From IMG/VR virus record IMGVR_UViG_2634166457_000012, positions 1-9,933 of that record: a stretch of 9,933 nt of DNA. The stretch is one strand, 5' to 3'. The position numbers and the translations under genes are program-made. The notes beneath the pieces are model-generated. The model was not told where the DNA came from, did no database searches, and worked only from the letters and a program-made list of their open reading frames with translations. This document shows, in pieces, positions 1 through 9,933 of this stretch. Within the stretch, counting starts at the first letter, position 1. The number at the start of each line of letters is the position of its first letter. Source of the DNA: a virus. Its lineage: Duplodnaviria > Heunggongvirae > Uroviricota > Caudoviricetes.

Positions 1-385
1 AAATTTGATCCAGTAAGCACGGTTTTGGCCTTTTCGCCATTCTGTTGGCTCGGTTATTAGCATCAACAGCTTTGTAATAGCGTCTGCCCCGATTACGCTG
101 AACTTCACGTGAGATCGTCGAAGGACTGCGATTCAGCGCAGTAGCTATCGCACGAATGCTCATTTTGGCTGACAAACCAGCTCGTATCTCCTCGCGCTCA
201 GACAGTGTCAGGTGAGCTACAGCCCGCTTACGCTCATGGGGTTTTATGCCGCCAGTATCCCTTAACATAGTGAAGATCGTTCCGGGTTTTGAACCCAGGA
301 TATTCGCTATTTCACTGAAGCCTGTTCCGTTCTTCCATAGTTCAAAAACAGAGGCTTTTTCCTCTGCTGTAAATGTTCGTCTCAT
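1..385 (-). CDS. insI: IS30 transposase, N-terminal ~128 codons (C-terminus outside window)
   Basis: Minus-strand ATG at 385..383 preceded by GGAGG. Translation begins MRRTFTAEEKASVFELWKNGTGFSEIANILGSKPGTIFTMLRDTGG..., the helix-turn-helix N-terminus of IS30 transposase. Not in the ORF track because the frame runs off the window edge. Confidence 0.85.
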   Translation of the reverse strand, partial: MRRTFTAEEKASVFELWKNGTGFSEIANILGSKPGTIFTMLRDTGGIKPHERKRAVAHLTLSEREEIRAGLSAKMSIRAIATALNRSPSTISREVQRNRGRRYYKAVDANNRANRMAKRPKPCLLDQI

Positions 386-447
386 TCAAAAAACCTCCGC
401 AACCCCATGTTTTCACATAACTGTTGCGTTGACCAATTGAATCTACA
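1..447 (-). mobile_element. IS30 insertion sequence, partial (terminal inverted repeat plus 5' part of transposase gene; remainder lies beyond the window start)
   Basis: Reverse complement of 447..421 reads TGTAGATTCAATTGGTCAACGCAACAG, which I recognise as the IS30 terminal inverted repeat. It is followed by a GGAGG RBS and the transposase ATG. The element ends exactly where the gpD-like reading frame is broken (447/448). Confidence 0.88.
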
Positions 448-714
448 AGTGCCTTTTTCTGTCAGCGGTTCTCCTTTCCAGCCAATGAGAACCGTCAGGC
501 GCGCGCCCCGTGGCGGTAGCTGCAACTGACCATCCGCATCATCCAGCGTGATGGTGAGCTGGTCCGCCTCAAATCCTCGGTTGTCGGTCAGTGACAGGCT
601 CATCAGGCGCTCTGCCACGCCTGACAGCGTTTTACCCTCCGCAAGAATATCAAAATCCGGCATTTTCACGGGGTCTGTGCCCTGACTGAGCAATTGCATG
701 GTTGTGTCGGTCAT
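448..714 (-). pseudogene. D: P2 gpD-like tail/baseplate hub protein (late control gene D family), 5' fragment of ~89 codons truncated by IS30
   Basis: Minus-strand ATG at 714..712 with AGGGAGG RBS 6 nt upstream. Translation MTDTTMQLLSQGTDPVKMPDFDILAEGKTLSGVAERLMSLSLTDNRGFEADQLTITLDDADGQLQLPPRGARLTVLIGWKG carries the LTDNRGFEADQL-I-LDD motif typical of the phage gpD N-terminus. The frame reads into the IS30 end and stops at a TGA overlapping the transposase ATG. The track ORF 382..846 is this frame, over-extended upstream and read through into IS30. Confidence 0.6.
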
Positions 715-871
715 CTGTTCCCTCCCTGTGCGGCATGGTCGCATGTGCGTGCGGAGGGGGTTACTGCTTTTTGTTGTCGCCGTGGCGGGAGAATAGCGCA
801 GGGGTGAGATTACGCGCGTGGTGGGTGATGATTGTTGCTGAATCATTTAACGGATACAAGGGGCTGAAGCT
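715..871. promoter_or_regulatory. Divergent intergenic region between gpD-like (minus) and sheath FI (plus); presumed to carry promoters for both
   Basis: 157-bp non-coding gap between two divergently oriented starts, each with a good RBS. No confident -35/-10 pair and no P2 Ogr-type TGT-N12-ACA dyad found by eye. Confidence 0.3.
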
Positions 872-2056
872 ATGAGTGAAACTCGTTTTCATGGTGCCCG
901 TGTTACGGAAAATACCGACCTGGTAACAGCGATTAACGATGTTGATTCCAGCGTTATCGGTATCGTGGCAACGGCGGATGATGCGGACGCGAAGCTGTTC
1001 CCGCTGAACAAGCCCACACTGCTGACCCGCGTCAATGACGTGCTGGGAAAATGCGGGACAACGGGGACGCTTTATCGTGCGCTTAAGGCCATCGCAGACC
1101 AGGTGAGCACAAAGGTGATCGTCGTTCGCGTGGCTGAACACAAAGAAGAAGACGGAAAGACGCAGGATCAACTGGTTATCGGTGGTTCTGAGGATGATGG
1201 CAGCTATACGGGGATGTATGCGCTGCTTGTTGCAGAGCAGGATGAAAGCATCGGATACCGTCCGCGTATTCTGGCCGCGCCGGAGCTGGACACGGAGGCG
1301 GTGACAAAATCCCTGTGCGTGATTGCGGGTAAACTGCGCGCGTTTGTGTATGCCACATGTCATGGTTGTAACACGATGGCTGAGGCAATTACCTACCGCC
1401 AGAAATTCAACGAACGTGAGGTGATGCTCTTATGGCCGGACTTCATCGCCTACAACCCGAAAAGTGGCAAAAACGAAACGTTCCCCGCGCCTGCCTATGC
1501 GTGCGGCCTTCGTGCGTACATTGACCATGAGCAGGGCTGGCACAAATCACTGTCCAACGTTCCGGTTAAAAATGTGCTGGGGATGTCGAGGCATGTGTTC
1601 TGGTCGTTGCAGGCCGAAGACAGCGATGCCAACAGCCTCAATAATAAAGAAATCACGACCATTATTCGTCGCAACGGGTTCCGCTTCTGGGGCAACCGCA
1701 CACCGGAAACGAACGCCTACATCTTTGAGGTGTATACCCGAACCGCACAGGTGCTGGCTGATTCAATTGCGGAAGCGCAGTTTGAAACCATCGACAGTCC
1801 ACTGACGCCTGCGAATGTGAAGGATGTTATCAGTGCCATCAGGGCAAAACTGGATTCGCTGGTTACTGCCGGGAAACTGATTGGTGCGGAGTGCTGGTAT
1901 GACGTGGTGGATAACGGTACCACGAATTTACGTCAGGGACGTGTGCGTATTCGCTACAAATATACGCCTGTTCCCCCGCTGGAAGACATGGAGCTTTACC
2001 AGACGTTTACTGATGAATTCTTTGGTCCCGCATTTGCGGTGCTGGGAGGTGCCTGA
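872..2056 (+). CDS. FI: Contractile tail sheath protein (P2 gpFI family), 394 aa
   Basis: ATG 872 with AGGGG RBS ~8 nt upstream. Length and sequence character match myovirus sheath proteins of the P2 FI type (P2 FI is ~396 aa). Followed immediately by tube, chaperone, tape measure and gpU in the canonical order. Confidence 0.88.
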   Translation: MSETRFHGARVTENTDLVTAINDVDSSVIGIVATADDADAKLFPLNKPTLLTRVNDVLGKCGTTGTLYRALKAIADQVSTKVIVVRVAEHKEEDGKTQDQLVIGGSEDDGSYTGMYALLVAEQDESIGYRPRILAAPELDTEAVTKSLCVIAGKLRAFVYATCHGCNTMAEAITYRQKFNEREVMLLWPDFIAYNPKSGKNETFPAPAYACGLRAYIDHEQGWHKSLSNVPVKNVLGMSRHVFWSLQAEDSDANSLNNKEITTIIRRNGFRFWGNRTPETNAYIFEVYTRTAQVLADSIAEAQFETIDSPLTPANVKDVISAIRAKLDSLVTAGKLIGAECWYDVVDNGTTNLRQGRVRIRYKYTPVPPLEDMELYQTFTDEFFGPAFAVLGGA

Positions 2057-2568
2057 TGGCTGTACCAAAACATCTTCGCTTTTTTACGTTGTTTGTGGAT
2101 GGTGAAAACGAAGTGGGTAAAGTGACATCCGTCACGCCGCCCAAACTGACGCGCAAAACCGACAGCTATCGTGGTGGTGGCATGATGGGGGCGGTAAGTA
2201 TTGATCTCGGTCTGGACGACTCCGCGCTTGATGCGAGTTTTGTCATGGGGGGAGCTGTTCGTGCGCTGTTCCTTAAATATGGTGGCACGATTGACGGCAC
2301 GCTGCTGCGTTTTGCGGGTGAATACTACACCGATGCAGAAAGCGATCTGTATGAAATCGAGATGCGTGGGCGTGTGACGGAAATTGATATGGGGGAAGCC
2401 AAACAGGGCGAAGCCACATCACACACTTACGCTGTCAAAAACACCTACTACAAGCTGAGCGTTAACGATCGCCCGCTGTGGGAAATCGACCTGTTGAACC
2501 ACATCTACCGGAAGGACGGCAAGGACATTGTGCCTGACCGTATCCGTTCCGCGCTTGGGCTTGGCTGA
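2056..2568 (+). CDS. FII: Tail tube protein (P2 gpFII family), 170 aa
   Basis: ATG 2056 overlaps the FI stop (TGATG) and is preceded by GGGAGGTG. Size matches P2 FII (~172 aa) and it sits directly after the sheath gene. Confidence 0.88.
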   Translation: MAVPKHLRFFTLFVDGENEVGKVTSVTPPKLTRKTDSYRGGGMMGAVSIDLGLDDSALDASFVMGGAVRALFLKYGGTIDGTLLRFAGEYYTDAESDLYEIEMRGRVTEIDMGEAKQGEATSHTYAVKNTYYKLSVNDRPLWEIDLLNHIYRKDGKDIVPDRIRSALGLG

Positions 2569-2623
2569 TAAGTAATATGCAGGCGGCGCAGTGCGTCGCC
2601 TCTGACTGAAAAGGAGACAACTG

Positions 2624-2998
2624 ATGAAAGACATCGATACTGAAACCCGGAATAACACCGTGGCGGATGATGTGACGGCAGGTGAGGATATGGCTGTCGA
2701 ACGTGGCGTAAAACTGACCCGACCAATTGAGCGTGGTGGCGAAAAAATCACGTATGTGGAGATCACCGGGGCTATTGAGCAGGCTGGATCCCTGCGTGGT
2801 CTGTCGCTGTCTGATGTGCTGAATCTGAAAGCGGATACCATGTTCACGCTGTTGCCTCGCGTGACCTCGCCACGACTGGATGAAGTGATGATTAAAAAAA
2901 TGTCGTCACGCGATTTTATTCAGTTGTGCGCTGTGGCTGTAAATTTTATGAGCGAGCCAGACTCTGGCGCGAAGAGCGTGCAGGAGACGGCAGCGTAA
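2624..2998 (+). CDS. E: Tail assembly chaperone (P2 gpE-like), 124 aa, zero-frame product
   Basis: ATG 2624 with AAGGAG RBS at 2611..2616. Small acidic protein between tube and tape measure. Its 3' part is overlapped by a -1 frame ORF that runs to 3162, the hallmark of the E/E' (lambda G/GT-like) chaperone pair. Confidence 0.78.
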   Translation: MKDIDTETRNNTVADDVTAGEDMAVERGVKLTRPIERGGEKITYVEITGAIEQAGSLRGLSLSDVLNLKADTMFTLLPRVTSPRLDEVMIKKMSSRDFIQLCAVAVNFMSEPDSGAKSVQETAA

Positions 2999-3162
2999 TC
3001 ACCCTGGTGTGCTTTGAGCACATCGAAGATCTGGTGGCGGATATTGCCGCCATTTTTAACTGGTCGCCCGCCGAAATCTTCATGATGACGCCCGGCGAAG
3101 TGGTTAGCTGGCGTGAGCGGGCGGCACTTCGCAGCGGGAATGCAGACAATGAAGACTCTTGA
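2624..3162 (+). CDS. Tail assembly chaperone frameshift product E+E' (programmed -1 frameshift, predicted ~179 aa)
   Basis: The -1 frame is open from 2896 (after TAA at 2893..2895) to TGA at 3160..3162 and overlaps the last ~100 nt of E. A heptamer fitting X_XXY_YYZ in the E frame lies at 2941..2947. The E' stop overlaps the start of T. Confidence 0.55.
2941..2947 (+). other. Candidate -1 slippery heptamer A_AAT_TTT for the E/E' frameshift
   Basis: E-frame codons AAT(2942..2944) and TTT(2945..2947) preceded by A2941. A small hairpin GCCAG-ACT-CTGGC (2956..2968) lies 8 nt downstream. An alternative site is the A7 run at 2894..2900 (T_AAA_AAA), which is non-canonical. Confidence 0.4.
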
Positions 3163-5956
3163 CATCCGGGTCGCTTTCAGCGCCGTTGACAGGCTGACCC
3201 GGCCTGCCGAAAACGCCCGCCGCCTGATGGGGCAGTTTGGTGACTCCATCCAGCGAACGCAGGGGGCGATCAAAAATCTCGAGCGTCAGGCGCGTTCATT
3301 TGAGCGCGCCCGTGACGCTGTCAGTAAAGCGGATGCTGGCGTATTGAAAGCACGACGCCAGCTTAACGCCCTTAATCAGTTACAACGCACGGGTACAGTG
3401 CTCAGCGAAAAACAACAAAAGCTGATGCAGCAGTTAAGCACCCGGCTTGAACGCCTGAATGAATCGCGCACACGGGAAATTCAGAAAATGCGGGAACTTG
3501 GCGGAGAGCTGAAACGCCACGGCATTTCCCTGACAGGCAGCGATAACACCATCCAGCAGGCCATCAGACGCACCGAACAGTACAACAACCAGCTTGAACG
3601 CGAACGGCAGGCGCTTGCGCGTGTAACGCGGGCGCGTGAGCGGTATTCGCGCGCGCAGGAAACAGAGGGAAAACTGAAAACAGGTGGTGCACTGGCAATT
3701 GGTGCGGCAGCGGCGGGCGGCTATGCTGCCGGGCGTTTTTTGCAGCCTGCGATCGGGTTCGGCAAAGAGATGTCCTGCGTTCAGGCACTGACGCGAATCG
3801 ACAAAAACAGCCCGCAGTTTAAGGCGCTGCGTGAGCAGGCGTTAAAACTTGGCTCTGAAACACAGTTTACTGCGAGTGATGCCGCCAGTGGGCAGAGCTT
3901 TCTGGCAATGGCTGGTTTTACTCCTCAGGCCATTCAGGCCGCATTGCCCGGTGTTCTTAATATGGCGCTGGCAGGTGGCGTCGAACTCGGCGAGACGGCT
4001 GATATAGGCTCCAATATCCTCACACAGTTCAACCTGACAGCCGATCAAATGGACCGGGTTGGCGATACGCTGACAGCAGCATTCACCCGGACCAATACTG
4101 ATTTACGCGCGCTGGGCGAAACCATGAAGTATACCGGTCCGGTTGCCGCAAAACTTGGTATCAGTCTTGAAGAAGCGGCGGCCATGGCCGGGATGCTTGC
4201 CAATAATGGTCTTCGCGGAAGCGATGCGGGTACGGCCATGCGCGCAAGTCTGTCCCGCCTTGCATCACCGCCAAAAGCTGCGGCTGATGCACTGAAAGAG
4301 CTGGGGGTGTCAGTTGCTGACGCCAGAGGCAAAATGCGCCCAATGGAGGATGTGCTGCTTGATCTCTATAAGGCGACACAAAAATACGGACAGGTGGACC
4401 AGGTCTCCTTCTTCAAGGACATCGCCGGAGAAGAGGCGTTCGTTGGTTTGCAGACGCTTGTTGCGGCGGCTGGTTCAGGAGAACTGCAAAAACTGACCAG
4501 AGAATTGCAGGGGGCAAGGGGAGAGGCCGATCGCGTTGCAAAAGTAATGGCCGATAATCTTGATGGGGACCTGAAAAATCTCGACAGCGCATGGGAAGGT
4601 CTTCGTATTCGCATCAGTGATCTGGTTGACGGTCCGCTGCGTTCTGTCACGCAGTGGCTCACGCGGGTGCTTGAAAAAATCACCTCGCTGGCGCAGGCCC
4701 ATCCGGTACTGACGCGCCAGCTACTGATAGCAGGCGGTGCGTTGCTGGCAATGACTGCAACGATTGGCTCGTTGTCGCTGGTTATTGGGGTGCTTTACGG
4801 GAAGCTGGCCACCCTGCGTCTTGGTTTTGACATTCTTACCCGGTCAATGAATGTCGTCAGGGTGTTGCCTGCGCTGTGGGGAATGGTGACGGGTTCCGTT
4901 TCTTTACTGGGGGGCGCTATCGGGGCGTTGTTCAGTCCGGTTGGTCTTATTGTGGCTGCGCTCGCCGGAGCTGCCGTTCTCATCTGGAAATACTGGGATC
5001 CCATCAGGGCATTTTTTGCCGGGGTGTTCAGCGGGATTATGGAAAGGCTGACCCCGTTGCGCGAAACCTTTGAACGGTTTGGTCCTGTTTTTGACGCAAT
5101 CGGAAGCGGGATCAGCCAGGTGTTTAACTGGTTTAAATCGCTGCTGTCACCGATGGAGTCCAGCAAGGAAACGCTGGATAAATGTACCAGTGCTGGCGAG
5201 ATATTCGGTAACGTTCTTGGCGGTGCGTTACAGCTTGTTCTGACACCTGCAAAAATGTTGCTGGATACGCTGGCGTGGATACTTGAAAAGCTCGGTGTGC
5301 TTCCGGATGAAGCGGAAAGGGCGCGCAAGAAAATCGAAGACGCACAGCGTGCGGCCATTCTTCAGGATAAGGTTGCCTTGCTTCAGGGGGACCTGGCGAA
5401 AATCAATCCGCCGAAGCCTGTGGAAAATGGCAATGGTACCGGAGGTGATAAGCCCAAAGACAACAAACCGCTCACAGACAGCAATACCGGTACGCTACGC
5501 AGACTCAGCAAAATTGCTGATAACACAGGTAAGCTGGTTGATGAGACGAAAAAACGCATTGGCCCCGGCGATATTGTCTTTAAGAACCTGCCCCGCGCAC
5601 TTGCTGTTCGTGGGGAGTGGCAGGAGCGGAAGATTGCGCAGGTCAGTAAGCCTGCCCCCGCAATTAATATCACACCCGTGGTTCCGGCTCCGCTGTCTCC
5701 AGCGCTGGTCCCTGTTGTTGCGGCCAGCTCCCGCCCGGTGGCGGAGGCCATACGATCGCCAGTGGCATCAGTTCCTGCAACTTCCCGTAACCGGGAGCCT
5801 GTTGCCTCCGGATTTGGCGGTGAAATTCATGTTCATCTGCATAACGTTGTTACGCAGAATCCCCGCGAACTGGCGAAACTGGTCGGTGAAATGGTCAGGG
5901 CAGAATTGGAACGACGCGACCGTGCCGGACGTGGCAGTTTTTACGATAAAGATTGA
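3149..5956 (+). CDS. T: Tail tape measure protein (P2 gpT-like), ~935 aa
   Basis: Long ORF directly after E/E'. N-terminal third is coiled-coil-like and rich in R/E/Q/L. The middle has Gly/Ala-rich hydrophobic segments (e.g. LLIAGGALLAMTATIGSLSLVIGVLYG and GAIGALFSPVGLIVAALAGAAVLIW) typical of tape measure proteins. Start chosen at ATG 3149 (GGGA ~9 nt upstream); in-frame alternatives are ATG 3140 and GTG 3113 (the track start). Confidence 0.85.
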   Translation: MKTLDIRVAFSAVDRLTRPAENARRLMGQFGDSIQRTQGAIKNLERQARSFERARDAVSKADAGVLKARRQLNALNQLQRTGTVLSEKQQKLMQQLSTRLERLNESRTREIQKMRELGGELKRHGISLTGSDNTIQQAIRRTEQYNNQLERERQALARVTRARERYSRAQETEGKLKTGGALAIGAAAAGGYAAGRFLQPAIGFGKEMSCVQALTRIDKNSPQFKALREQALKLGSETQFTASDAASGQSFLAMAGFTPQAIQAALPGVLNMALAGGVELGETADIGSNILTQFNLTADQMDRVGDTLTAAFTRTNTDLRALGETMKYTGPVAAKLGISLEEAAAMAGMLANNGLRGSDAGTAMRASLSRLASPPKAAADALKELGVSVADARGKMRPMEDVLLDLYKATQKYGQVDQVSFFKDIAGEEAFVGLQTLVAAAGSGELQKLTRELQGARGEADRVAKVMADNLDGDLKNLDSAWEGLRIRISDLVDGPLRSVTQWLTRVLEKITSLAQAHPVLTRQLLIAGGALLAMTATIGSLSLVIGVLYGKLATLRLGFDILTRSMNVVRVLPALWGMVTGSVSLLGGAIGALFSPVGLIVAALAGAAVLIWKYWDPIRAFFAGVFSGIMERLTPLRETFERFGPVFDAIGSGISQVFNWFKSLLSPMESSKETLDKCTSAGEIFGNVLGGALQLVLTPAKMLLDTLAWILEKLGVLPDEAERARKKIEDAQRAAILQDKVALLQGDLAKINPPKPVENGNGTGGDKPKDNKPLTDSNTGTLRRLSKIADNTGKLVDETKKRIGPGDIVFKNLPRALAVRGEWQERKIAQVSKPAPAINITPVVPAPLSPALVPVVAASSRPVAEAIRSPVASVPATSRNREPVASGFGGEIHVHLHNVVTQNPRELAKLVGEMVRAELERRDRAGRGSFYDKD

Positions 5957-5962
5957 GGAGTC

Positions 5963-6457
5963 ATGGCCATGATGATGATCTACGGCATGTTTGTTTTTGA
6001 GTTGCGCACGTTGCCGCATCAGCAGTTACAGCAAAACAAAAGCTGGCGACATGTGAAAAATGAACGCGTTAACCGTTCGGCAAGCTGGCAGTATATCGGT
6101 GCAGGTGATGATCGCATCGTTCTTTCGGGTGTTCTTTATCCTGAGATTACAGGTGGCGAAGTGTCGCTGTCGTTGTTGACCACGCAGGCATATACAGGAC
6201 GCCCCTGGCCTCTGATTGATGGCGTCGGGCAGATTTACGGCATGTATGTACTGACTGAAACGAATACGACCCGCTCCGAGTTTGATCGCTACGGTAAGGC
6301 GAAAAAGATAGAATTTTCACTGACTCTTGAACGCTGTGATGAGGATTTGCGGGAGCGCCTGCAATCCTCATCGTTCAGCGATATGTTGTCCGGCTTCAAA
6401 GATAAGGTGACATCATCCCTTAACAGCGCGGCCAGCTCAGTTAAGGGGCTGCTCTGA
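5963..6457 (+). CDS. U: Tail protein gpU-like (P2 U family), ~162-164 aa
   Basis: Follows the tape measure by 6 nt. Size matches P2 gpU (~159 aa). GAGGAG at 5955..5960 is best spaced for the in-frame ATGs at 5969/5972, so the true start may be 6-9 nt downstream of the track start 5963. Confidence 0.8.
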   Translation: MAMMMIYGMFVFELRTLPHQQLQQNKSWRHVKNERVNRSASWQYIGAGDDRIVLSGVLYPEITGGEVSLSLLTTQAYTGRPWPLIDGVGQIYGMYVLTETNTTRSEFDRYGKAKKIEFSLTLERCDEDLRERLQSSSFSDMLSGFKDKVTSSLNSAASSVKGLL

Positions 6458-6467
6458 TTTAACGTAT

Positions 6468-6500
6468 GTCGCCAATTTCCTGATGAAGGTGACTGGCGAC
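6468..6500 (+). other. Inverted repeat GTCGCCA-N19-TGGCGAC just downstream of the gpU stop; possible weak terminator or processing hairpin
   Basis: Perfect 7-bp arms at 6468..6474 and 6494..6500, followed by TTGCTGTTGT. The long loop and poor U-tract make an intrinsic-terminator call weak. Confidence 0.25.
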
Positions 6501-6533
6501 TTGCTGTTGTATGTCCTTCTCAGAAAATTGTTT

Positions 6534-6562
6534 TTGAATAACAAATAACAGGATTTTATAAT
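6534..6562 (+). promoter_or_regulatory. Near-consensus sigma70 promoter for the acetyltransferase moron
   Basis: TTGAAT (6534..6539), 17-nt spacer, TATAAT (6557..6562). Predicted transcript start ~6569, about 45 nt upstream of the GTG start, in an AT-rich non-coding stretch. Confidence 0.55.
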
Positions 6563-6613
6563 CTCTTAACCTTATAACATGTGTGGTCTGAAATAATAAT
6601 TAAGGAGATTTTC

Positions 6614-7186
6614 GTGCTGTCTTACTTAATGGCAATTCACTTTGTTTTATTTGGGAACTCTACTAATTTAAAAAACTTCTGGAAACATGAAGTGATTCGG
6701 CGGAAACGTATGGATATCTGGAGGCTTTTAAGAGAGAAAAAGCAGCGTAACCGGAATTTCCTGTTCTGGTGGCGGTTGGCTAACGAAATGTATATTAATG
6801 GTAATAAATCACATAAGAAAGCAGCCAAAAAGTTAAACAGTAAAATAATTAACAAATTTGGTTGTGAAATAGGATTGGGAGCAAATATTGGAAAAGGGTT
6901 AACAATTCCCCATCATGCTGGAATTGTTGTTCATTTTGCTGTTGATGCGGGTGAAAATCTGGTATTACGACAGAATACTACCATTGGACAGATAGATGGT
7001 GACATGCCTGGTTCAAGAGTGAAAATTGGTAGTAACGTTGATATCGGAGCTAATTGTTGCATCATTGGATTATCACGTAAAATTGGGGATAATGTAAAAA
7101 TAGGTGCAATGTCTTTTATAAATAAAGATATACCATCAAACTGCACATATATAACTAAAAAGAGTGGTGTTGTATTGTATAAATAG
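6614..7186 (+). CDS. Hexapeptide-repeat (left-handed beta-helix) acetyltransferase, serine O-acetyltransferase (CysE/WcaB/NeuO-like) family; ~190 aa; AT-rich moron
   Basis: Translation contains the SAT-family signature GCEIGLGANIGKGLTIPHHAGIVVHFAVDAGENLVLRQNTTIG followed by further hexapeptide repeats (VKIGSNVDIGANCCIIG, KIGDNVKIGAMSFINKDIP). Start assigned to GTG 6614 because AAGGAG (6602..6607) lies 6 nt upstream; the track ATG 6581 has no RBS. Followed by a strong terminator. Confidence 0.72.
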   Translation: MLSYLMAIHFVLFGNSTNLKNFWKHEVIRRKRMDIWRLLREKKQRNRNFLFWWRLANEMYINGNKSHKKAAKKLNSKIINKFGCEIGLGANIGKGLTIPHHAGIVVHFAVDAGENLVLRQNTTIGQIDGDMPGSRVKIGSNVDIGANCCIIGLSRKIGDNVKIGAMSFINKDIPSNCTYITKKSGVVLYK

Positions 7187-7193
7187 AGTACAT

Positions 7194-7230
7194 AAAGCCA
7201 TCGATATTTCTGTCGATGGCTTTTTCTTTT
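7194..7230. terminator. Rho-independent terminator, shared by the convergent acetyltransferase (plus) and tfa (minus) transcripts
   Basis: Perfect stem AGCCATCGA (7196..7204) / TCGATGGCT (7213..7221) with 8-nt loop, then TTTTTCTTTT (7221..7230) on the plus strand. On the minus strand the same stem follows the tfa stop but has only a short U-tract (UUUAUG). Confidence 0.8.
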
Positions 7231-7808
7231 TATTGTGGGGCGACTGGCCACTCAACATCCGCTGCTACTGTTGTATCAACACGATTCAACAATACCCTAT
7301 ATGTCTTCCATGCAGCCAGTAACGATGCCTCTTCCTCCGTCGCAATATCCAAATCTACGGCATCCTGAAGTGGCGCAATATGCTCACTGGCTACCTGCAT
7401 CAGGCTGTTTTTTGTTTCTTCTGCCTCCCGTACCCGAAACAGTTTTTCTGCTTCTGCATCTTTCACCCAGGATGTGCCGTTCCACTTCTGACACTCTCCA
7501 TCCGGCGACAACCAGGTAACATTTTCCGGTAACGGACCGAGTTCAGAAATAAATAACGCGTCCCCTGATGCCACGTCATAAACCGTTTTACCCCGATGGT
7601 CTTCAACGAGATGCCACGATGCCTCATCACTGTTGAAAACAGCCACGAAGCCTGCCGGAATATCTGGTGGTGCAATATCGGTACTGTTTGCAGGCAGACC
7701 TGTATGAGGTGGAATGTATGCATCACCTTCCCCAATAAATTCATTAGTTCCGGCCAGCAGGTTATAAATTTTTATGGTCCGTGATTGTTCACTCATTCTG
7801 AAATCCAT
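7230..7808 (-). CDS. tfa: Tail fibre assembly protein (lambda Tfa / P2 gpG family), ~192 aa
   Basis: Translation ([97 protein letters not shown]...) is near-identical to phage lambda Tfa as I recall it. ATG 7808 with GAGGTG 5 nt upstream; the track start GTG 7814 is less likely. Confidence 0.9.
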
Positions 7809-7816
7809 GTTCACCT

Positions 7817-8719
7817 CTACTTAATATCAGAGACAGAATATTGTTTATTGAGCGTATGGGTGGGAGTACCAATAACGATGCTACTTCCGTGGCTATGTGC
7901 GCCAGAGGTGACATTACCTACGGGATTTTCTGGATTAATCCGGTGTATATGCGAACCAGGGCGAAAACGGTTATTAGCCTGATGTTGTATCAGTACATCA
8001 TCAGCCTGATGTTCAGGGTTAATACAGACTTGCCCGGAACGAGAGCAACACGTCCGATAATCGCCACATCCAATATATTTAGTATCCGCATAACGGCAAA
8101 CGGAATTACCCGGACAGTATGCATATGTGCCAAATACTGCCGACTGGCGAGATTGTGCGTATTCCCAGTTAATTGATTCTGTTTTTTTATTAAAGTTATC
8201 CCATGCCTGCTTCATCTGTCGGGCAACACTTTCAAACGGCACCTGACCACATCCGGCCCCCATTGCAGGGAATACCACTGTTTTTATTTTCATGTCTGTC
8301 GTTGCGTTTTTATTGTGTTGAAAGATGGCAAGCAGAGCGGCCCAGGTTGCGTTATATACAGCGTCTGTTCCGTCAATTGTCAACGGAACACGCATTGTTG
8401 GCGCATGTACCAGCCAGGGGTGATGATTATGCCCCGTTTCAATGACAAATGCAGAACCTACAGGCTGTTCGCCGAGATATTCACGAAGAATATGATTCTG
8501 AACGCGGGACTGTAACTGAGTACCGAAGAATGCGGTAATGGCGGCATCAACGCCACCATCCATCAAGCCGAAACTATTTGCCGCACTTACCATGCAGTCA
8601 AATTCTCTGATTGTTTCAAATGGCTTTCCGACAATATTCACACTATCTGCATTTGCAAATACCTGCTTAAATGCTTCAGCCATTTCTGTTACTGGTGCAG
8701 AAAGAATGAGCGTAATCAT
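7817..8719 (-). CDS. Macro-domain protein (predicted ADP-ribose-binding / ADP-ribosyl hydrolase) with Cys/His-rich C-terminal extension, 300 aa
   Basis: N-terminal ~180 aa carry macro-domain motifs in the correct order: [26 protein letters not shown] (compare VNAAN..L.GGGGVDGAIHRAAG), [25 protein letters not shown], and [22 protein letters not shown] (compare FPAISTGVYGYP). ATG 8719..8717 overlaps the stf stop (ATGA) with GAGG 5 nt upstream. Stop TAG 7819..7817 lies 8 nt before the tfa ATG. Coding call is strong; the functional call is from motif recognition only. Confidence 0.7.
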
Positions 8720-9933
8720 GCAAGCCTCACAATATAGTTAAATGCGATGTTTTTTACGGTGTTTTCTGCGTTACCCGTAGCGTTAACGGTGATGGTATGC
8801 CCGTGTGAACCTATCGCAACGGAGTGTGTGTGTGCGCCAATATTTACTGTGTGAGAGTGCCCCCCTGCGTTACTTGTTTTTCCAGTGCCAAGCCCTGAGT
8901 TATAACCAGCCGAAACACCATTACCAGCGCCAGTGTTGCCAACAGGAATATTGTGTGAATGATCCCCGGCGCTATTCGTGGTTTTAGTGCCATGGTTAAA
9001 TGAACTGGACGTCTTGGTGCCGTAGTCAAATGATGATGTGGTTTTTGTCCCCAAGTCCGTACTGGACGCGCTGGCACTGTGGGAGTGTGATTTAATGCCG
9101 TCCTGTTCCTGAGATAATACGGCCCGACCACTGGCGGGTTTGCCCTTAATCGTCCAGCCACGCATATCAGGGATCACACCAGACGGATAAGCGACTGCAA
9201 GCAGGGGGTAGACTGTTTTATCAAAAGTCTGCCCCTGCATAACGGTGTAGCCTGTAGGCACTGAATCAGAAGGCCACGGTATCGCCGCACCTACCGGAAA
9301 TGAATCTTGTGGCGTCCATGGTGTCCAGTCACCCGTTGAGTACTGGCTGCGGGTATAGCTTCTGGATGTGTCATACACATAGTAAATCTGTGTTATCCCG
9401 GCATTTTTAAGCACAACCAGTGTACCCGCAAAATTCTCCGGGTATTTCAGCGCTGCGCTTGTATTGGCATTCAATGGCTGATGGTACAGCCCCGGTGTTT
9501 TGTAATTATCCAGATTCTGATTTGCACCAATCTCAATACTCTGGCCGTTAAAAATATCCTGCGATGTAACATTGACATCATTGGCTAGTGATTTGCCATT
9601 AACCTTACGTCCAGAGGGCACACGCCCGTTTGCATTGTCATTAGCGGCTTTCACCGCTTTCGGAGTCGCGGCAAGCGTTTCAGAATCACTGTTAGTGACG
9701 CTACTGAGCTGGACTATTCCTTTTCGTGCCGTCGTGGCGTCCTGTGCGGTATATTTCCCGTTAGCAAGGTCATAGGCTGCCTTTACCGCCTTTGGTGTTG
9801 CCGCCAGCGTTTCTGAATCGCTGTTGGTGGCGCTACTGAGCTGGACTATTCCTTTTCGTGCCGTCGTGGCGTCCTGAGCGGTATATTTCCCGTTAGCAAG
9901 GTCATATGTTGCCTTTACCGCCTTTGGTGTTGC
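8716..9933 (-). CDS. stf: Side tail fibre protein (lambda Stf-like), C-terminal ~405 codons; N-terminus lies beyond the window end
   Basis: Frame is open to the window edge with no start codon. Contains 44-aa tandem repeats [34 protein letters not shown](A/V)TNSDSETLA characteristic of enterobacterial phage tail fibres. The His-rich C-terminus [28 protein letters not shown]...[11 protein letters not shown] matches the lambda Stf tip. The track ORF 8716..9654 is the same frame cut at an internal GTG. Confidence 0.9.
9655..9933 (-). repeat. Tandem direct repeats, period 132 bp (44 codons), at least 2 copies in window, within the stf coding region
   Basis: GCTACTGAGCTGGACTATTCC occurs at 9700 and again at 9832; GCCTTTACCGCCTTTGGTGTTGC at 9779 and 9911. 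Copies are near-identical over ~90 bp, and the copy nearest the C-terminal part is diverged at one end. Confidence 0.85.

Follow-up and report, generated by a model that had tools for sequence, protein, structure and literature searches.

The 9,933-nucleotide (nt) stretch of viral DNA analysed here, IMG/VR record IMGVR_UViG_2634166457_000012, is called the window, and all coordinates given below refer to it. It was mapped by listing of open reading frames (ORFs), Pfam scans and comparison with annotated genomes, among which a prophage of Escherichia coli strain Z1323HEC0462, hereafter L001, is 98.8% identical to the window. The window begins within an IS30 insertion sequence (end portion, 1-446) and carries, in this order, a fragment of the tail gene D, the contractile-tail genes FI to U, a gene for a hexapeptide-repeat acetyltransferase, the fibre chaperone gene tfa, an ORF encoding a macro-domain protein and the distal two thirds of the fibre gene stf/H, which leaves the window at its right end. 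We read this arrangement, with a probability of about 0.88, as that of a P88-like (genus Xuanwuvirus) E. coli prophage whose host-range region has been replaced by a portable cassette. By homology, FI to U and the baseplate-proximal third of the fibre belong to the backbone, the distal fibre, its chaperone and the neighbouring genes are common to lambdoid, P1-like and Mu-like elements, and the macro gene is an accessory gene embedded in the fibre module. The identities of the window genes to their P2 and lambda counterparts lie far beyond chance. A first-pass annotation, made from the letters alone, had proposed lambda-like fibre genes attached to a P2-like contractile tail, and all the elements that it listed were found where it had placed them; the mosaic as it was stated is correct, and it is also ordinary, since the swapping of fibres between phage types is textbook knowledge.

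The tail genes of the backbone lie on the plus strand and encode the sheath FI (872-2056, Pfam Phage_sheath_1), the tube FII (2056-2568, Phage_tube) and the tail chaperone E (2624-2998, Phage_TAC_7), with limits transferred from the L001 annotation, followed by E' (3007-3162, a separate gene in that annotation), the tape measure T (3113/3149-5956, PhageMin_Tail) and U (5963/5969-6457, Phage_P2_GpU). The sheath, tube, E/E' pair, tape measure and gpU stand in P2 order, and, with the P2 annotation as a guide, a -1 frameshift is expected to join E and E'. The remaining piece of D (447-714, minus strand) comprises its first 89 codons, cut by IS30, and is 59% identical to residues 15-85 of P2 D. Amino acid identities to the other P2 counterparts are 45% (FI), 42% (FII), 35% (E), 33% (T) and 46% (U). 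The earlier description of FI, FII, E, T, U and D as P2-type thus stands at the level of these 33-59% identities and of the Pfam families, all six products matching P2-type ones, but the backbone itself is, by its sequence, P88-like and not that of P2, most probably of the genus Xuanwuvirus. The stretch 447-6463 shows 92-95% nt identity to the phages P88, P884B11, 500465-2 and PhiR44_2 and to Citrobacter phage Shae_phiSM, the named members of Xuanwuvirus (Peduoviridae) that match here, a comparison that covers about 6 kilobases (kb) of a roughly 35-kb genome in a genus defined on whole genomes. In Xuanwuvirus, as seen in L001 and Shae_phiSM, FI to U are transcribed toward V-W-J-I-H-tfa, with D and ogr divergent on the far side. 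Because this convergence is found across the genus, the gene order of the window is not a rearrangement.

The same arrangement recurs among resident prophages. The window sequence is present and annotated in many RefSeq genomes; from position 447 onward, prophages of 54 complete E. coli genomes match it at 95-99% identity, and some part of the whole window is matched in 5087 of the 5426 complete genomes that form the denominator for all E. coli counts given here. Positions 1-8853 are colinear with a Xuanwuvirus prophage of strain MEI003, the IS30 copy included, and homologous loci carry the annotation "phage late control D family protein, incomplete" beside an IS30 transposase. The IS30 site in D, after codon 89, occurs also in prophage CP-933T of O157:H7 strain EDL933 as well as in MEI003. 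This shared site suggests either common descent with an element of the O157:H7/O55:H7 type or a hot spot for IS30 insertion.

Homology with all P88-like phages stops at 6463, so that the left junction of the variable region falls at 6463/6464, 6 nt past the stop codon of gpU. The guanine-plus-cytosine (GC) content is 54% in FI-U, 33-35% in 6464-7186, 48% in tfa, 45% in the macro gene and 50% in stf. On the right, P2, Shae_phiSM, lambda, mEp460 and the P1-like phage JL22 coincide in matching the stf gene in one stretch only, the Phage_fiber_2 zone at 9625-9933 (70-85%), and the H N-terminus that is 93% identical to that of Shae_phiSM ends at about window position 9912. We therefore place the variable region, by these homology limits, from 6464 to about 9625-9912, with the acetyltransferase gene inside it, in place of the limits 7230-9933 given by the first-pass annotation. 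The cassette is itself a patchwork, with mosaicism also inside stf, as judged from the prophage of MEI003: this has the same acetyltransferase, tfa and macro genes and is 96% identical to the window up to 8853, after which the fibre tip matches at 81% or not at all.

The chaperone gene tfa (7230-7808, minus strand; ORF to 7814) encodes 192 residues that match Pfam Caudo_TAP with E=3.8e-40. It probably starts with the ATG at 7808, which is preceded by a Shine-Dalgarno sequence (AGAGGTGAAC-ATG). The proposed closeness of Tfa to lambda was borne out: the two proteins are 89% identical over 191 residues (E=2.7e-130), and at the DNA level tfa is 89.3% identical to that of lambda over 563 nt, 90% to that of mEp460 and 92% to that of JL22. 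These three phages share no DNA with the tail genes of the window, which match P88-like phages, and it is in this sense that fibre exchange between unrelated phages, as the first-pass annotation supposed, is seen here; among characterised phages the best matches do not fall uniformly in one lineage. The C-terminus of Tfa matches that of the Mu protein of the same name (Protein Data Bank, PDB, entry 5yvq), and P2 G shows 44% identity to its C-terminal 66 residues.

The fibre gene (8716-9933, minus strand) contains matches to Pfam Phage_fiber_2, Collar and Phage_fiber, and its distal part carries nine-residue repeats of the form IGAHxHxxx. For the C-terminus of Stf, said beforehand to be close to lambda, the result is divided. 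The terminal residues are the same as those of lambda orf-314 and the 3'-most 100 nt (8715-8814) are 92% identical to lambda, but the receptor-binding part (residues 211-405 of the partial protein) is only 59% identical to orf-314 in a gapped alignment. The closeness to lambda can thus be maintained, on these alignments, for Tfa and for the extreme 3' end of stf, and is moderate for the receptor-binding part. The 3' end that flanks the macro gene and travels with it and tfa spans 8715-8868 on the minus strand. At the other end, residues 1-106 are 79-85% identical to the repeats of P2 H. The gene can be followed beyond the window in L001, whose full-length fibre is 97.8% identical to the partial one, and there residues 1-254 are 73% identical to P2 H, the value for H of Shae_phiSM being 93%; this answers in the affirmative the question, raised earlier, of a P2 H-like N-terminus beyond the window. 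Two tandem 132-nt copies encoding Phage_fiber_2 repeats lie at 9625-9888 (minus strand; direct repeat, 86% identity between copies). The copy number of this 132-nt repeat differs among relatives (region 21206-21719 in L001), and consequently the length of the fibre probably differs between otherwise near-identical prophages. By sequence, the H and G proteins of P2 are themselves related to lambda Stf and Tfa, and the exchange would therefore amount to a swap of distal halves within one shared kind of module.

The acetyltransferase gene (6614-7186, plus strand, GTG start at 6614; 35% GC) lies at the left end of the cassette, within an island of low GC content (6464-7229, 33-35%). A Shine-Dalgarno sequence AAGGAG can be read directly at 6603-6608 (plus strand) and a promoter-like site TTGAAT-17-TATAAT, agreeing with the consensus at 10 of 12 positions, lies upstream at 6534-6562 (plus strand). 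A hairpin with a 13-bp stem at 7194-7223, a probable terminator, separates the gene from the convergent tfa. The best NCBIfam matches of the product all remain below their cut-offs (EpsC 74.5 against 150, CysE 61.8 against 211, WcaB 53.7 against 196), and serine acetyltransferase structures in the PDB align only over the left-handed beta-helix domain, the N-terminal helical domain being absent. Since only the beta-helix aligns and the scores are far below the cut-offs, "serine acetyltransferase" is a family label and not an established function. The protein is a member of the hexapeptide acyltransferase superfamily by its sequence, and a specific assignment to CysE, WcaB or EpsC is not supported; in PHROGs it falls into PHROG 2154, annotated as of unknown function. 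Its counterparts in the P1-like phages JL22 and Ro157c2YLVW are 91% identical, and its gene occurs in 530 of the complete E. coli genomes, O157:H7 strains among them. In JL22 the acetyltransferase gene and tfa (6622-7802 in the window) are contiguous, with 92% identity, and this block lies inside the invertible C segment (4.3 kb, 602-nt inverted repeats) beside cin. The low GC content, the apparently independent signals and the location next to the fibre genes fit a lysogenic-conversion gene, and we regard the gene as a candidate of this kind that may alter surface polysaccharide.

The macro-domain ORF (7817-8719, minus strand; 300 residues) scores 67.9 bits against Pfam Macro, for which the gathering score is 22. 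Its surroundings indicate how it is built into the fibre operon. In lambda and JL22 the junction reads ...GTGAGGCTTGCATAATG(G/A)CATTCAGAATGAGTGAACAA, with the stop codon of stf touching the start of tfa. In the window the left flank at the end of stf reads ...GTGAGGCTTGCATGATTACG... and the ATG of the macro gene overlaps the stf stop codon (ATGA), while the macro ORF ends in ...AAGTAGAGGTGAACATGGATTTCAGAATGAGTGAACAA, with a new ribosome-binding site just ahead of the tfa ATG at 7808. When lambda, mEp460 and JL22 are taken for comparison, positions 7809-8714 (906 bp) form a clean, gene-sized insertion, and the macro gene has taken the place at which tfa of lambda is translationally coupled to stf (GAGG...ATGA at the stf stop codon). 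Two other readings of the macro ORF were discarded: a programmed frameshift fusing Stf to the macro protein was rejected, as inspection reveals no slippery heptamer at CTT-GCA-TGA, and a three-frame translation gave no sign that the C-terminal third of the macro ORF is an out-of-frame or remnant fibre tip. The DNA repeats common to this third and to the fibre tip are limited to the GAHxH codons.

The macro ORF had been described as part of the exchanged cassette, and it does travel with it. The unit 7244-8868, comprising tfa, the macro gene and the last ~150 nt of stf, recurs at 93% identity in a lambdoid prophage, beside lom, and at 88% in a 101-kb P1-like plasmid. Of the complete E. coli genomes, 128 carry the macro gene, with 22 copies borne on plasmids. 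Its context was surveyed in the 80 best IMG/VR loci encoding a relative of the macro protein (61-100% identity), and in all 80 it is placed between a fibre gene and tfa and its start overlaps the upstream stop codon (ATGA in 75 loci, GTGA in 5). The upstream gene ends in the exact C-terminal motif of the window Stf in 73 of the 80; the other seven were missed by the motif search, and five of them that were inspected end in NIAYNYIVRLA or in one other 11-residue variant. In 78 loci a Tfa homologue starts between -10 and +31 nt from the macro stop codon. Marker genes assign the 80 loci to P2-like, lambdoid, P1-like and Mu-like backbones. The order fibre-macro-tfa, with genes overlapping or abutting, is likewise found in Salmonella Gifsy-1 (lambdoid), in Salmonella phage SEN4 (P2-like, genus Senquatrovirus), in the isolated phage Chuche, in Erwinia and Citrobacter prophages and in a Mu-like Enterobacter prophage. 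In the last of these (L017/L018, 3853-7045) a fibre with a Collar domain, the macro protein, Tfa and a convergent hexapeptide acetyltransferase follow one another, and this four-gene layout adjoins genes matching Pfam Mu Gp45, Gp46 and Gp48; the linkage of acetyltransferase and fibre module thus recurs in another genus and on another backbone. We also noted a 463-residue protein (P0006) that combines ParM/StbA-type domains with a sequence 100% identical to the macro protein over 80% of the query. It is probably a deletion fusion in a decaying prophage, because parM of EDL933 sits a few kb from the truncated cassette.

The macro protein consists of a Ymx7-like macro domain (residues 1-196), a conserved cysteine cluster (202-232) and a variable tail with GAHxH motifs. 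PHROGs places the family in phrog_2613, annotated as of unknown function. In a search of 1.84 billion representative proteins, residues 1-195 fell into a large subfamily, most members of which are stand-alone proteins of ~200 residues, with 36-50% identity. With a profile of 69 proteins, the best relative of solved structure is yeast Ymx7/YMR087W, an ADP-ribose-1''-monophosphatase (PDB 1njr, E=1.5e-17). An AlphaFold model computed from the 69-sequence alignment has a predicted local distance difference test score (pLDDT) above 94 for residues 1-190, and a Foldseek search with it again returned 1njr first (E=5e-11, 198 columns, root-mean-square deviation 2.8 Å), followed by TTHA0132, macroH2A and MacroD-type domains, the top matches all being macro domains. 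A first model, built from 17 close homologues (mean pLDDT 55.7), was too poor and its fold search was not relied on. Membership in the DarG/AdfM group found no support, the PADLOC DarG model giving no significant match (E=0.007, 13.8 bits) and DarG structures ranking only 15th and 37th in the fold search, behind Ymx7 and MacroD-type proteins. The motifs conserved in the family lie around N48, G55-G56, D58 and G154-G156-G158, and N48, G56, D58, G154 and G158 are invariant or nearly so in two family alignments. These five residues, which would fall in the motifs for ADP-ribose binding and catalysis (the Asn of AAN, GGxD and the G-x-G-x-G loop), may, in part from the alignment to TTHA0132, be the equivalents of catalytic residues of MacroD2 or Ymx7, and their conservation is what an intact ADP-ribose pocket would show. 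The subfamily extends well beyond the clade embedded in fibre operons: it has giant-virus and jumbo-phage members and includes long, multi-domain, apparently eukaryotic proteins (P0134, P0138, P0156 and P0211), whose extra regions resemble, by eye, WD40, RNA-binding and dual-specificity-phosphatase domains. For two distant stand-alone relatives (P0122 and P0123) the contigs, about 1.5 kb long, are too short to inform on context.

Residues 196-300, in contrast to the domain, are restricted to the fibre-embedded clade. The extension contains the conserved residues C202, C208, C225, C232 and H237, after which the variable tail begins. The 107 unique macro tails together contain 224 HxH motifs, as compared with 50 after shuffling; 157 of the 224 are preceded by GA, and successive HxH pairs are spaced by a multiple of nine residues in 67 cases against 0.66 in the shuffles; as the tail sequences are related, these counts show that the motif is real and do not amount to a probability. 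The repeat of the macro tail and the distal repeat of Stf have the same form and the same period of nine residues. In the trimeric needle of T4 gp37, iron is coordinated by HxH motifs of this type. The ratio of nonsynonymous to synonymous substitution rates (dN/dS) is 0.07-0.22 in the macro domain and 0.23-0.32 in the tail, and domain and tail are both, by these ratios, kept by purifying selection.

Databases label the macro gene "phage tail protein" or "function unknown", and the origin of the former label deserves a comment. Homologues in the jumbo phages phiRSL1 and Noxifer are labelled "tail protein" or "tail assembly-like" but are not near fibre genes, and accordingly lend no support to a role in the tail. 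The family phrog_14717 ("tail protein", 228 positions) resembles stf residues 303-391 in its first half and macro residues 45-170 in its second. It looks as if it had been built from stf-macro deletion fusions, and the "phage tail protein" label on macro proteins, those of jumbo phages included, may derive from it. Literature searches on macro domains together with tail fibres or Tfa returned no study of a fibre-embedded macro gene, and, as far as these searches reach, the fixed fibre-macro-Tfa order and the fibre-like macro tail are undescribed.

These observations can be assembled into a tentative mechanism. Homologous recombination would swap the cassette, one handle being the Phage_fiber_2 repeats common to P2-, lambda-, P1- and Mu-like fibres and the other the conserved 3' end of stf together with tfa. 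A new fibre tip with its matching chaperone would then retarget the phage to a different receptor, and the acetyltransferase would probably modify the surface polysaccharide of the lysogen and protect or mark it, as lysogenic conversion or superinfection exclusion. From the coupling of the macro gene at the stf stop codon and the new ribosome-binding site of tfa, we infer that the macro protein would be made late, together with the fibre and the chaperone. It may be a hydrolase that acts in the cytoplasm on ADP-ribose derivatives, forms oligomers by way of its fibre-like GAHxH tail and, as an unproven best guess, counters a host defence based on ADP-ribose or nicotinamide adenine dinucleotide (NAD). 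Among the observations that suggest this purpose are the ability of another phage macrodomain, AdfM, to do so and the presumed synthesis of the enzyme at the same time as fibre and chaperone. In its fullest form, the fibre-embedded macro proteins would be a dedicated class of accessory enzymes of phages: Ymx7-like hydrolases, made in step with the fibre, that oligomerise or dock on the fibre-chaperone complex by means of the cysteine/GAHxH tail and perhaps of Tfa, and that counter an ADP-ribose/NAD immunity triggered by fibre or chaperone. This proposal is doubtful and is offered as speculation; its tie to a preprint on Pseudomonas N4-like phages, which makes no mention of this protein, is one that we infer ourselves.

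Several points weigh against the account as a whole or against parts of it. No single phage matches the whole cassette, and the comparisons point to no donor and to no direction of transfer. As judged from its distribution, the exchange happened long ago and has become fixed in a lineage of prophages; it is no event peculiar to this genome, because the mosaic occurs at 95-99% identity in the 54 complete genomes mentioned above. The copy at hand is probably tail-defective and not a working phage, since gpD, interrupted by IS30, would probably leave it unable to build tails. Promoter-like sites in the acetyltransferase region are no commoner than in shuffled sequence, and the one reported above is a consensus match only. 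As for the macro protein, Pfam Phage_fiber does not match the macro tails significantly (E about 4-6), the likeness to fibres being at the level of the motif, AlphaFold gives no confident structure for residues 200-300 (as a monomer), and a counter-defence enzyme expressed late is unusual.

A cassette that was swapped in by recombination has to be weighed against other histories of the region. Had there been no exchange, the fibre genes would have descended vertically, with rapid evolution, from H and G of P2, and the distant homology of P2 G to Tfa (44% over 66 residues) and the presence of the same repeat region in P2 H agree with this; we nevertheless hold such a descent to be extremely improbable and virtually refuted, given that tfa is 89-92% identical at the nt level to that of lambda and of P1-like phages, which have no DNA in common with the tail genes, that the backbone homology ends abruptly at 6463 and that the GC content shifts at the junction. 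Another history, possible although on the unlikely side, makes the cassette the frozen half of an invertible host-range switch like the G segment of Mu, the C segment of P1 or the segment of Shae_phiSM, the ancestor having had an invertase and two tips and a deletion or recombination having left one orientation plus the acetyltransferase gene of the segment. At exactly the position corresponding to 6463/6464, P88-like relatives have an invertase and a gix-like inverted repeat; beyond U of Shae_phiSM there follow a DNA invertase, this repeat (TTCCTGTAAACCGAGGT...), two opposed tfa genes and an H gene. The acetyltransferase-tfa block of JL22 lies inside its 4.3-kb invertible segment, and lambdoid prophages have an invertase-type recombinase just past tfa. 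The window, however, contains no invertase ORF in either the ORF listing or the Pfam scan, no match to the gix-like crossover site of Shae_phiSM even with 2-3 mismatches allowed, no inverted repeats other than short ones at chance level, and neither a second, oppositely oriented fibre tip nor a second tfa. A frozen switch would in any case concern the origin of the cassette and is compatible with its having replaced the host-range region of a P88-like prophage, not opposed to it.

The place of the macro gene within this replaced region admits two further explanations besides counter-defence. The gene could be a passenger unlinked to the fibre, inserted once and spread by flanks that recombine readily, which we think rather unlikely. 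It does sit in a mobile unit bounded by the conserved stf 3' end and tfa, and it is found in 128 E. coli genomes as against the 5087 that match some part of the window, meaning that the fibre module works without it. A mere passenger is hard to square with a triad that is kept down to 61-69% amino acid identity, with saturated synonymous divergence, across five genera and with zero relocations, with the acquisition of a fibre-like tail specific to the clade, and with purifying selection, which shows that the gene is used. Conversely, the macro protein could be a physical part of the fibre apparatus, either as a Tfa-dependent trimer or docked to the tip through the GAHxH tail, so that an accessory enzyme or binding module would ride on the virion. 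The placement between the fibre gene and tfa, which did not vary in any of the 80 loci or across five backbone types, the translational coupling to stf, the selection acting on the tail, the agreement of its repeat with the distal Stf repeat in form and nine-residue period, and the confinement of the cysteine cluster and GAHxH tail to the fibre-embedded clade (relatives at 40-50% identity are tail-less proteins of ~200 residues) all speak for it. We still judge it quite improbable: the macro domain is N-terminal, so that no part of the protein looks like a domain for attachment to baseplate or fibre, macro domains are known to act on intracellular derivatives of ADP-ribose, the "phage tail protein" labels have apparently been propagated by annotation, for instance through phrog_14717, the jumbo-phage homologues so labelled stand away from fibre genes, and no virion proteomics data were found.

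As an instance of modular host-range exchange, the mosaic adds another documented case without being novel in principle. Haggard-Ljungquist and colleagues reportedly described, in the Journal of Bacteriology in 1992, the exchange of fibre genes between P2, lambda, Mu, P1 and T4/T-even phages. A more recent article describes a host-recognition module common to different phage families (PMC10579305). The present comparison shows a 1.6-kb unit (stf 3' end, macro gene and tfa) that moves between E. coli elements of lambdoid, P1-like and P2-like type, its copies being 88-93% identical; prophages in O157:H7 relatives and in sequence type ST131 are among its carriers. The mosaic is useful for prophage typing and for the engineering of fibre swaps. 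The macro gene is the only part worth following up, being conserved, selected and found at a fixed place in the fibre operons of many temperate phages of enterobacteria. Should it prove to encode a counter-defence enzyme whose production is timed with that of the fibre, receptor-binding modules and immune evasion would be linked through it; should the protein ride on the virion, it would represent a new kind of fibre accessory.

Among known macro-domain proteins, Ymx7/YMR087W (1njr) and the MacroD-type proteins (TTHA0132, OiMacroD, YmdB and MacroD2) share fold and subfamily with the window protein. Its identity to Ymx7 is only about 21%, and it differs by its extra cysteine cluster and GAHxH tail and by its location in a phage fibre operon. 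In chimalliviruses, the DarG2-like macrodomain protein AdfM removes DarT2 marks from DNA and thereby acts in counter-defence (PMC13309987), which establishes that macro domains of phages are able to erase ADP-ribosylation imposed by a defence. AdfM resembles the window protein in being a phage-encoded macro domain, but it is DarG/TARG1-like and acts on ADP-ribosylated DNA, whereas the window protein is Ymx7/MacroD-like and its relative in phage PhiPA3, according to the fold search, is gp271 and not the AdfM homologue gp108.

Among the closest known systems are the P88-like phages. P88, P884B11, 500465-2 and Shae_phiSM have the same FI-FII-E-E'-T-U block and the same layout of D/ogr versus V-W-J-I-H-tfa, but P88, P884B11 and Shae_phiSM have an invertase and an invertible fibre segment where the window has an acetyltransferase gene and one fixed tip. 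CP-933T of EDL933 is 98% identical over U-acetyltransferase-tfa and carries the same IS30 insertion in D; unlike in the window, its tfa is cut by an IS3-family element and neither a macro gene nor stf follows. Phage Chuche has fibre-macro-tfa like the window, although its cassette is only 80% identical. Lambda shares with the window the C-terminal motif of Stf, the GAHxH repeat region and the collar-type distal domain. In lambda, however, stf corresponds to orf-401 plus orf-314 with tfa directly after it and overlapping, whereas in the window 906 bp with the macro gene intervene; the N-terminus of lambda Stf is not shared, that of the window lineage being P2 H-like (73% in L001), and the lambda tail is non-contractile. 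In P2, fun(Z) lies downstream of G, the genes FI to D are on the same strand, and there is neither a macro nor an acetyltransferase gene; the tip of P2 H and most of P2 G are unrelated to the window cassette. What P2 H and the window lineage do have in common is the plan of the fibre itself, a constant proximal part combined with an exchangeable distal part and its cognate chaperone.

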